Positions 5,992 to 7,901 of a stretch of 38,889 nucleotides of DNA are shown one piece after another (position 1 is the stretch's first letter; the number at the start of each line of letters is the position of its first letter). Below the pieces are notes generated by a model, which was not told where the DNA came from, ran no database searches, and was given only the letters and a program-made list of their open reading frames with translations. Source of the DNA: an uncultured Clostridia bacterium (GTDB lineage Bacteria; Bacillota; Clostridia; TANB77; CAG-508); NCBI GenBank assembly GCA_949455995.1, contig CASUIT010000002.1, positions 1 to 38,889 of the forward strand, read 5' to 3'. A program made the position numbers and the translations under genes.

Positions 5992-7014
5992 ATGAAAGTA
6001 TCAGAATTTAATTATGAACTGCCAGAAGAATTAATAGCACAAACACCAATCGAAAAAAGAGACGAAGCAAGATTAATGATATTAAACAAAAATAAACAAA
6101 CCATAAAGCACAAAACATTTAAAAATATAATAGACTATTTGCAACCAGGAGATGTATTAGTCAGAAACAACACAAAAGTAATACCAGCAAGACTATATGG
6201 AAAAAAGGAAACAGGAGCCAAAGTCGAATTTTTGCTATTGAATCAGATAGAAAAAGACACATGGGAATGTATCGTAAGACCAGGAAATAAGTTATCAATT
6301 GGAACAAAAGTAATATTTGCAGAAGGACGATTAAAAGCAGAAATTTTAGAAATCATGTCTGGAGGAACCAGAAAAGTAAAATTTCAATATGAGGGAATAT
6401 TCAATGAAATATTAGACCAAATTGGACTAATGCCATTACCACCATATATTCATGAAGAATTAAAACAAAAAGAAAGATACCAAACCATATATGCAAAACA
6501 CAAAGGATCAGCAGCAGCACCAACAGCAGGATTACATTTCACAGAAGAACTAATCCAAAAAATACAAAAAAAAGGAATAACAATAGCCAATGTAACCCTA
6601 CACGTTGGAATAGGAACATTTCGACCAGTAAAAGAAGAAACCATAGAAGCACATAAAATGCACACAGAACATTACTATATAAAACAAGAAGATGCACAAA
6701 AAATAAACCAAGCAAAGAAAGAAAACAAAAAAGTAATAGCAATCGGAACCACATCATGTAGAGTATTAGAAACAGTAGCAGACCAAAATGGATATATACA
6801 AGAAGCAGAAGGAGACACACAAATCTATATCTATCCAGGCTATCAATTTAAGATACTAGACGGTCTAATCACCAACTTTCATTTGCCACAATCAACCTTG
6901 TTAATGTTAGTATCAGCACTAGCAGGAAAAGACTATATCATGAAAGCCTATAAAGAAGCAATAAAAGAAAAATACCGTTTCTTTAGTTTTGGTGATGCTA
7001 TGTTAATAATGTGA
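5992..7014 (+). CDS. queA: S-adenosylmethionine:tRNA ribosyltransferase-isomerase
   Basis: [19 protein letters not shown]..., [13 protein letters not shown] and TTSCRVLE are hallmark QueA motifs. Full length, 340 aa. Confidence 0.95.
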
Positions 7015-7040
7015 CAAAAGGGGCGTCCCTTTTTGTCACA
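7010..7040 (+). repeat. REP-like 31-nt palindrome, copy 1
   Basis: TGTGACAAAAGGGGCGTCCCTTTTTGTCACA. It contains the queA stop codon (TGA 7012-7014). Confidence 0.9.
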
Positions 7041-7088
7041 AAAATAAAATAGGGGCAATAATTATAATTTAGGAAGGATAGGATAATT

Positions 7089-7832
7089 ATGCCCAAATTT
7101 ATTAGAGAGAATTTGAAAGGAATAGAATTTGTACATGTTACTACACATGGAATTGATGGAGAAAATATATATCAAAATATAAAAGAAAAAAAGGAAATTA
7201 GAAAACTGATTTTGGAAAATCAAGAAGAATTTAACATTAATATAATGTCATATTGTATAATGAATAATCATTTGCATTTATTAATTAGATTAAAGAATCC
7301 ACAAGATTTATCTAGATATATGCATAAGGTAAATACTTTATATGCTATATACTATAACAAACGACATAAAAGAGTTGGTTATGTATATAAAAATAGATTT
7401 TATTCACAAATAATAAAAGACAAAACACATCTTATCAATGCTATTATTTATATACACAATAACCCTGTCAAGGCAAAAATATGTGATAGTGTAAAAACAT
7501 ATGAATTTAGTAGCTATAAGAGTATTTTAAGTACACAATGGAAAGATTTTATAAACATATTTCCATCTAAAAAACAATACATAAAGGCTCATGTAAAAAA
7601 TAATAATAGTTTATATTCAGTAGATTTTGAGAAAGTAACATTAGAAGAAGCAAAAGACATTTTTATTAGATACTTAAAAAATAATGGATTAGATAAAGCA
7701 ACCTTAAAAAAAGAGAAATTGTATGAAATTTGTAAAGAATTAAAGAAAAATTATAAAATTACATATAGAGAATTAGAAAAAATTACAGGAATAGGGCGAG
7801 AGACCATAAGGAGGTTATTAAAAAATAAGTAA
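7089..7832 (+). CDS. REP-associated tyrosine transposase-like (IS200/Y1_Tnp superfamily) with a C-terminal HTH (DnaA-C-like) domain
   Basis: HUH motif in NNHLHLLI, downstream YVYKNRFYS and YIHNNPVKA. The C-terminus YRELEKITGIGRETIRRLL looks like an HTH. Flanked by inverted copies of the 31-nt palindrome. Confidence 0.75.
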   Translation: MPKFIRENLKGIEFVHVTTHGIDGENIYQNIKEKKEIRKLILENQEEFNINIMSYCIMNNHLHLLIRLKNPQDLSRYMHKVNTLYAIYYNKRHKRVGYVYKNRFYSQIIKDKTHLINAIIYIHNNPVKAKICDSVKTYEFSSYKSILSTQWKDFINIFPSKKQYIKAHVKNNNSLYSVDFEKVTLEEAKDIFIRYLKNNGLDKATLKKEKLYEICKELKKNYKITYRELEKITGIGRETIRRLLKNK

Positions 7833-7870
7833 GACAAGCATGAATAAATGTTTTAAATAAATAAAATAAA

Positions 7871-7901
7871 TGTGACAAAAAGGGACGCCCCTTTTGTCAC
7901 A
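7871..7901 (-). repeat. REP-like 31-nt palindrome, copy 2 (exact reverse complement of copy 1)
   Basis: TGTGACAAAAAGGGACGCCCCTTTTGTCACA. It ends 1-2 nt before the tgt Shine-Dalgarno AAGGAGG. Confidence 0.9.

Follow-up and report, generated by a model that had tools for sequence, protein, structure and literature searches.

A probable REPtron between queA and tgt in an uncultured, low-GC member of the Clostridia

Repetitive extragenic palindromes (REPs) and the REP doublets known as REPINs, maintained with REP-associated tyrosine transposases (RAYTs), are the prime example of vertical persistence by a non-autonomous DNA replicator alongside a domesticated transposase, and knowledge of them comes almost entirely from Proteobacteria. 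In the Escherichia coli REPtron (TnpA-REP/RayT, YafM, PDB 4ER8; REPs and bacterial interspersed mosaic elements, BIMEs) one Y1/HUH gene lies between inverted REPs, and the REPs are imperfect palindromes that are extragenic, located at gene 3' ends, and often arranged as inverted pairs. The E. coli tnpA-REP gene is inherited vertically with loss in some lineages (Ton-Hoang 2012, PMC3333891). In the REPIN-RAYT systems of Pseudomonas (Bertels and Rainey 2011; RAYT groups 2 and 3) the inverted doublet is the repeat unit, a master sequence is accompanied by variants, and a single-copy RAYT flanked by the same elements persists vertically over long times. We found no description of REPs or REPINs with a RAYT in Firmicutes in the literature searched, where Clostridia figure in one passing remark. 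Here we analyze a 38,889-nucleotide stretch of DNA (hereafter the window; contig CASUIT010000002.1 of assembly GCA_949455995.1, forward strand) from an uncultured Clostridia bacterium, in which a gene for a 247-residue Y1/HUH protein lies between queA and tgt and is flanked by inverted copies of a 31-nt palindrome. We assign a probability of roughly 0.85 to the reading that this locus is a REPtron, that is, a single, vertically inherited RAYT-type Y1/HUH gene bracketed by its inverted cognate REP hairpins.

The queA gene (5992..7014, + strand; Pfam Queuosine_synth, 4.7e-145) runs into the left REP, TGTGACAAAAGGGGCGTCCCTTTTTGTCACA (7010..7040, "+" form on the + strand), so that bases 3-5 of the REP form the TGA stop codon of queA (7012-7014). 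The rayT-like gene occupies 7089..7832 on the + strand (247 codons; Pfam Y1_Tnp, 1e-11), and the right REP, which is the exact reverse complement of the left REP ("-" form, 7871..7901, - strand), ends 1 nt before the Shine-Dalgarno sequence AGGAGG (7903-7908) of tgt. The tgt gene itself (7913..9040, + strand, with its ATG at 7913) matches Pfam TGT on both halves. A third REP copy, with one mismatch (14373..14403, + strand), begins directly after the stop codon of a recO-like open reading frame (ORF; 13785-14372). The REP forms a hairpin with a stem of 13-14 bp containing one bulged base or mismatch, and the calculated folding energy of the 31-mer is -11.4 kcal/mol as single-stranded DNA (z = -5.5) and -19.2 kcal/mol as RNA. 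Its ends, TGTGAC...GTCACA, make it a palindrome with a "double foot." No tnpB adjoins the rayT-like gene in the window or in the relatives' loci that were looked at. The initial annotation of this DNA had described the two inverted 31-nt copies, the queA stop codon supplied by the left one, and the placement of the right one 1-2 nt before the tgt ribosome-binding site, and all of these hold in the sequence.

The palindrome belongs to a dispersed family. A strict version of the REP pattern was found in at least 110 stretches of 8 kb, all from metagenome-assembled genomes (MAGs) labeled uncultured Clostridium sp. or Clostridia bacterium, and with up to four mismatches allowed there were at least 161 copies in 20 related genomes, with up to 20 in one partly sampled genome; matches to TGTGACAAAAGGGGCGTCCCTTTTTGTCACA expected in shuffled sequence numbered 0. 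The copy numbers per genome are lower bounds, and the window's own species is not among the matches listed. Density was roughly one REP per 20-40 kb in the window and in metagenome contigs. The family is extragenic, with 123 of 126 units (∼98%) located outside ORFs of at least 100 aa, and the units that could be assigned to a context lay in tandem (74), convergent (18), or divergent (2) intergenic regions. Singletons showed no bias relative to gene direction (21 co-oriented and 28 anti-oriented). Of the 164 REP copies examined, 30 overlapped the stop codon of an ORF with 100 aa or more and 26 others lay within 3 nt of such a codon (34% together), and 49% of the copies overlapped a stop codon or sat no more than 10 nt from one; a queA stop codon supplied by a REP is therefore the rule and not an oddity. 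Genes are thus often terminated by the TGA of the REP (in TGTGAC). A Shine-Dalgarno sequence and start codon followed within ∼12 nt at 27 of 327 outward REP flanks, roughly 19 of which were at genes other than tgt.

The arrangement of neighboring copies was highly ordered. Pairs were "+-" in 47 cases, "-+" in none, "++" in three, and "--" in two, such that the mixed-orientation pairs were "+ then -" in 47 of 47. The arms of the short doublets that we inspected were near-exact to exact reverse complements of each other, with lineage-specific substitutions common to both. This doublet geometry is REPIN-like and is the same as the geometry bracketing the rayT-like gene. Each genome contained one master REP sequence plus variants, and the gene-flanking copies mostly carried the variants of their own host genome. 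These properties agree with the REP-RAYT arrangement proposed in the initial annotation, as do the profile and fold comparisons of the protein given below.

A second class of doublet, ∼200-220 bp overall, encloses a conserved core of ∼150 nt; the core has 13-bp inverted sequences at its ends (AAAGGTTATTATA / TATAATAACCTTT) and a hairpin at its center (ACAGTCTGTTAAGAATTTACAGACTGT). Examples occur at L096:3156-3371, L046:6114-6323, L100:3800-4012, L104:2451-2664, L034:5285-5497, L122:3048-3261, and L018:2415-2629 (L-numbers denote homologous or REP-bearing stretches from other genomes), with further sites in L109, L103, and L035. Three genomes each contained the core at least three times, whereas the window lacks it; it matched no Rfam family.

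The protein is RAYT-like rather than IS200-like by both profile and fold. The NCBIfam REP_Tyr_transpos model scored 75 bits against the 247-residue sequence, compared with 22.9 bits for the IS200 model, whose cutoff is 55. Among 30 members of the family, REP_Tyr_transpos matched all 30 (best E = 2e-22) and the IS200 model reached 1e-6 at best. A profile search of the PDB returned E. coli TnpA-REP (4er8_A) as the sole significant match (E = 1.5e-4); the profile was needed, as a single-sequence phmmer search of the PDB gave nothing at E ≤ 1. The AlphaFold2 model (predicted local distance difference test score, pLDDT, of 86.5) also had 4er8_A as its top Foldseek match (E = 1.6e-7, target-normalized TM-score of 0.69, 15% identity over the structural alignment), and IS608 and ISDra2 TnpA came next at E ∼1e-4.

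The Y1/HUH core spans approximately residues 14-148. Seven positions were invariant in an alignment of 30 homologs: H61 and H63 of the NHLH sequence, R103, Y121, N124, N125, and P126. The HUH motif is N60-H61-L62-H63 (H61/H63 at 7269-7277), and the class 2 tyrosine signature Y---NP (Quentin 2018) is present as Y121-I-H-N-N125-P126. In the profile search Y121, within IIYIHNNPVKA, aligned with the YIYINPVK tyrosine motif of 4er8_A. On the strength of this conservation, the catalytic tyrosine is most likely Y121 of YIHNNP (codon 7449-7451). The initial annotation had placed it in YVYKNRFYS, but the tyrosines of that motif are not invariant in the 30-homolog alignment. Its description of an HUH/Y1 protein with an additional C-terminal helix-turn-helix (HTH) agrees with the Y1_Tnp match, the invariant histidine pair, and the structural model, in which residues ∼185-246 (7641-7826) make up a helical domain whose last part is a three-helix HTH. 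This domain gave weak generic matches only, to HTH_11, HTH_3, HTH_60, and Lrp-type HTH, and none to Bac_DnaA_C, HTH_23, or HTH_28. When it was submitted alone to Foldseek, the superpositions were confined to local three-helix HTH segments. An identity with DnaA domain IV was also considered and is unsupported, as the isolated-domain model (pLDDT 76) had no significant whole-domain Foldseek match. At E ≤ 1e-30, a full-library profile search returned 1,831 clusters (50% identity). Of the best 150, the majority matched over their full length, at 225-280 aa, and the combination of Y1 and HTH domains therefore defines a large, unnamed family.

The position of the gene is old. The order queA-rayT-tgt is kept in seven lineages, with RAYT homologs at 74%, 61%, and 40-45% identity to the window protein. 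Identities to the window for QueA/RAYT/Tgt fall in step (86/74/88, 80/60/85, and 72/41/79%), which fits vertical co-descent of the three genes with RAYT evolving faster. Other homologs have dnaB and tilS, or a SpoU methylase gene and aspS, as their neighbors on the two sides. Ten further lineages also have hairpins flanking the gene, with differing sequences, and the hairpins of RAYT relatives at 36-48% identity are different from that of the window (for example, CGTGGCAAAAGGGCCAGCC... in L009 and TTGCCAATAGGGACGCCCC... in L013). The feet of the hairpins are (T)GTGA in the window family, GTGG in L009, and TTGCC in L013. Most lineages have inverted pairs, whereas L131 has direct copies and L130 has the upstream copy only. 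For the variant REPs of L009-L016, no extra copies were found within ±6 kb of their RAYT gene. A second REP family, ATTGCCAA-NN-GGGACGGACCTTTTTGGCAAT, is related to the L013 hairpin type and is likewise dispersed; one contig of 389 kb carries at least 13 copies and another of 200 kb at least 10. The stretches carrying it (L132-L207, e.g., contigs Ga0137297_10004 and Ga0209694_1000061) are metagenomic, have ∼30% GC and approximately one copy per 20-30 kb, and contain REPs to which A-runs and T-runs are often added, making a longer palindrome that resembles a bidirectional terminator. No cognate RAYT of this second family was present in the stretches fetched around its copies.

The comparison that the initial annotation had proposed, with relatives in which queA and tgt are adjacent, yielded two such genomes. 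L208 and L209 (QueA 82% and 87% identical) have queA-tgt spacers of 106 and 80 nt, with no RAYT and no REP within 9 kb of the site. The QueA homolog search that supplied them returned only close relatives (at least 82% identity) and no outgroup, and these RAYT-less sites were two of its matches. In a neighbor-joining tree of QueA and Tgt (two genes, without support values) L208 nests inside the RAYT-positive lineages, which suggests secondary loss of RAYT from L208, and for at least one of the two sites this is the simplest account. Among genomes of this clade, GCA_051891395.1 (L208) is RAYT-less and GCA_949457195.1 is RAYT-positive. Since synteny extends down to 40% RAYT identity and a RAYT-less lineage is nested among the positive ones, the element is an old resident that is occasionally lost. 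The statement that it is "inserted" between the two genes thus stands as to position and falls as to a recent event, because the order is kept down to 40% RAYT and 72% QueA identity. A parallel to the occasional loss is found in E. coli clade B2, which lacks tnpA-REP (PMC3333891).

A separate feature of these loci is an ORF of 250-261 aa without a Pfam match, whose position is upstream or downstream of rayT depending on the species (L124:7040-7792, L099:1850-2602, L126:4757-5542, and L127:3815-4582). REPs bound it in L099, L124, and L126; in L127 none was seen on the side facing tgt. An 81-aa remnant is present in L003 (5655-5900) and in L066, and the window has no trace of it. The ORF behaves like a REP-bounded cassette gained and lost by recombination between REPs.

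Within the known diversity of these enzymes, the system would work like the REPtron and the REPIN-RAYT systems (PMC3333891, PMC3116915, PMC5581495), and the protein carries the HUH and YxxxNP signatures of class 2 TnpAY1. It shares with the E. coli REPtron an apparently single Y1/HUH gene between inverted REPs, the character and placement of the repeats, and probable vertical inheritance with occasional loss, but it differs in having an extra domain of ∼90 aa with an HTH and Y98/K101 in place of W-Q, in its REPs, which have no GTAG foot, and in its host, a low-GC (27%) member of the Clostridia. The inverted doublets, the master sequence with variants, and the persistent, apparently single-copy RAYT are likewise those of Pseudomonas; the protein subclass and REP sequence are different, the copy density looks lower, and the longer doublet class with its ∼150-nt core is additional. 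The protein resembles TnpAY1 subclass 2.1 (Bertels group 1, also termed TIRYT) in its NHxH and YxxxNP motifs, in the SS motif that follows its tyrosine helix, and in having an HTH at the C terminus. The median length in that subclass is 238 aa (Quentin et al. 2018, PMC6006769) versus 247 aa here, and group 1 RAYTs occur in Clostridia (Bertels 2017, PMC5581495). No REP-like sequences were found for subclass 2.1 (Quentin et al., PMC6006769), and TIRYT genes have terminal inverted repeats with a GGGGWSAS motif (Di Nocera et al. 2013, PMC3733652). The window gene, in contrast, is flanked by a true dispersed REP, neither GGGGCGTC nor GGGGCAAT fits GGGGWSAS, and the HTH, unlike that of subclass 2.1, does not match Bac_DnaA_C, HTH_23, or HTH_28. 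The YIHNNP and NHLH motifs fit subclass 2.6 (Bacteroidetes) at least as well as subclass 2.1. The text supplements of Quentin 2018 contain no Clostridia entries.

Several observations weigh against identifying the locus as a REPtron. The REP_Tyr_transpos score of 75 falls just short of the curated cutoff (80); the protein has Y98/K101 at the position of the W-Q/E motif, by which GTAG is read in E. coli; the foot of the window REP is GTGA and not the canonical 5' GT[AG]G; the window's own genome shows only one extra REP copy in its 38.9 kb; and the species that carries P0114 has no dispersed copy matching the pattern on a 103-kb contig. With neither a GT[AG]G foot on the REP nor a W-Q/E motif in the protein, recognition must differ from that in E. 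coli. The GT[AG]G foot and its reading by W-Q/E plus R residues are a feature of subclasses 2.2, 2.4, 2.5, and 2.7 and not of the whole class (PMC6006769).

If the locus were instead an ordinary, recently active IS200/IS605 insertion with the palindromes as its ends, one would point to the Y1_Tnp domain and to the presence of IS200-type elements in this genome, as represented by a collapsed TnpA remnant beside the third REP. The Y1/HUH fold and a hairpin upstream of the gene are indeed common to both. Nevertheless, IS200 has a YxxxQ tyrosine motif, distinct subterminal left and right ends, and multiple, horizontally mobile copies, whereas the rayT-like locus has YxxxNP, a single hairpin used in inverted orientation at both ends, and a fixed syntenic position that is retained down to 40% protein identity while diverging in step with the flanking genes. 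In addition, the IS200 profile score is far below its cutoff (22.9 versus 55 bits), tnpB is missing, and the hairpin has spread without the gene. The initial annotation had named as contrary outcomes a palindrome unique to its three sites and a protein of the ordinary IS200/IS605 TnpA type; instead, there are at least 161 copies and scores of 75 versus 22.9 bits. We regard a recent insertion of this kind as extremely unlikely, and the "transposase" annotation of the rayT-like gene should not be taken to denote an active insertion sequence (IS).

Two further explanations separate the hairpins from transposition. The palindromes could be host elements, such as bidirectional terminators or mRNA stabilizers, that are independent of the Y1 protein and flank its gene incidentally. 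Their location at gene 3' ends, their rarity in divergent promoter regions (2 of 94 classified units), the T-rich sequence of about a third of the outward flanks, and the TTTTTTG that follows many copies of the second REP family would be expected of such elements, but diverged RAYT lineages at three chromosomal positions each have their own hairpin type (inverted in most), the strict "+-" geometry of the doublets is repeated around the gene, singletons show no orientation bias (21 versus 28), and no T-tract accompanies either window copy on the coding strand; this account is very unlikely. Alternatively, the protein may no longer be a transposase and may act, through its HTH domain and hairpin-binding core, as a DNA-binding factor that uses REPs for regulation or chromosome organization, possibly linked to tRNA modification. 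Retention of the HTH domain in more than 150 clusters at 50% identity, the conserved box upstream of the gene, and the recurrence of tRNA-related neighbors (queA/tgt, tilS, and SpoU methylase with aspS) are compatible with that role, yet the neighbor pattern may be coincidence among housekeeping operons. Invariance of the HUH pair, Y121, and R103 in 30 diverged members argues for retained cleavage chemistry, and the master REP with its variants and the near-exact doublet arms suggest ongoing copying, such that we find a purely DNA-binding function quite improbable. The REPtron, with an enzyme that acts on its flanking and dispersed REPs, accounts best for these data.

By analogy with TnpA-REP and IS608 TnpA, the REPtron protein would bind folded single-stranded REP, probably at the replication fork, and the imperfection in the stem would allow it to tell the two REP strands apart. 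Cleavage beside the hairpin would be carried out by Y121 with a metal ion held by H61/H63, and subsequent strand transfer would duplicate or move REP doublets. More speculatively, the HTH domain might bind double-stranded DNA, and the GGGGCAAT leader box might hold transposase expression low, as an operator or through a stem that sequesters the start codon.

The leader box, TAGGGGCAAT, is followed by AATAAT/TATAAT (-10-like) at 7050..7068 (+ strand), upstream of the rayT-like gene. A promoter-like sequence, TTGTCA-18-AATAAT (7033-7062), derives its TTGTCA from the left REP. Irrespective of REP type, 16 lineages have the box, (A)TAGGGGCAAT, ∼25-39 nt before the start of rayT; the corresponding region is 7050-7094 in the window, with counterparts in L003, L007, L009, L013, and L127-L131. 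As RNA, GGGGCAAUAAUUAU is able to pair with AUAAUUAUGCCC, which spans the rayT start codon (AUGCCC). RNAalifold analysis of the leader retained a 5-bp GGGCA:UGCCC stem that is invariant and shows no covariation. The box may be a translational or operator control element, with sequestering of the start codon only a suggestion. It recalls the IS200 tnpA leader, whose structure may occlude translation initiation. Neither the GGGGWSAS motif of TIRYTs nor a downstream inverted copy of the leader box was found around the gene.

The initial annotation also assigned the hairpins a probable role as terminator or RNA-stability element, and the terminator part is not upheld. On the + strand the left REP is followed by AAAAATAAAAT and the right REP by the tgt ribosome-binding site; neither is terminator-like, and neither has a T-tract. 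Only the right REP read on the - strand, where it has a T-rich tail, is terminator-like. The interval 7832-7913 yielded no strong promoter for tgt, and tgt therefore probably depends on read-through, which argues against efficient termination at the REPs. Transcription probably runs from queA through the REPs into tgt, with the REPs forming stable RNA hairpins. REPs in E. coli act as 3' mRNA stabilizers, and by analogy those in the window may alter segmental mRNA stability at the ends of queA and rayT.

The tgt gene of the window contains an in-frame TAA (8108-8110), within the sequence ..AAT ACC TAA CAA TTG.. (NT-stop-QL; 8105-8113). A contig that is 99.93% identical (L002) has TAT CAT (NTYHL) where the window has TAA CAA, so the two T-to-A changes within 4 nt are among only 3 mismatches in 4.4 kb. 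The stop could reflect a strain pseudogene or an assembly error. Split genes are also seen in relatives, for tgt in L124 (4896-5946) and L209 (5104-6238) and for queA in L128 (1843-2869) and L129 (1856-2882); breaks in the queuosine genes seem to recur across this clade, or else the MAG assemblies are error-prone at these sites.

Elsewhere in the window, a 90-codon frame directly 3' of the third REP (14406-14675) is a collapsed IS200-type TnpA that has lost the HUH region. It retains YECKYHIVFSPK... and ...GFYVSTVGNN..VYNYVENQ, with a Y1_Tnp match at E = 0.003, below threshold, and an IS200 may have inserted at or beside that REP. A 521-aa WG-repeat/Cu_amine_oxidN1-like protein (9073-10638) comes after tgt in all relatives, and 48-nt tandem repeats at 10420-10659 encode its Asn/Glu/Gln-rich C-terminal tail. 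Ten consecutive + strand ORFs (18188-30267) lack Pfam matches, except for a SAF domain in the first, and there are four small paralogs with the hydrophobic N terminus MENASKALI.. (starts at 25110, 25908, 27088, and 27529); the region could represent a highly divergent locus of the pilus or secretion type. A pair of tRNA genes occupies 233-306 and 324-395 (Rfam RF00005, 64 and 66 bits), and a search of the whole window at the Rfam gathering threshold gave nothing beyond them.

The REPtron reading extends the REP-RAYT system to uncultured low-GC gut Clostridia and ties REPs to an HTH-bearing form of the enzyme that was previously reported without them. The broader proposition is that a family of HTH-bearing RAYTs (at least 150 and possibly ∼1,800 clusters at 50% identity) maintains true REP/REPIN populations in low-GC Clostridia, with REPs that are non-GTAG, double-foot hairpins, often supplying stop codons and sometimes abutting ribosome-binding sites; we hold the odds of this to be about even. 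By routinely overlapping stop codons and in some cases touching ribosome-binding sites, REPs of this type shape the ends of genes, and the recurrent 31-nt hairpin in these MAGs now has an explanation for the purposes of annotation. If the reading is correct, the dependence of REPINs on RAYT would be testable in a Gram-positive gut clade, in which close natural lineages with the gene (the window, L003, and L007) and without it (L208 and L209) provide gain/loss contrasts for REP decay.

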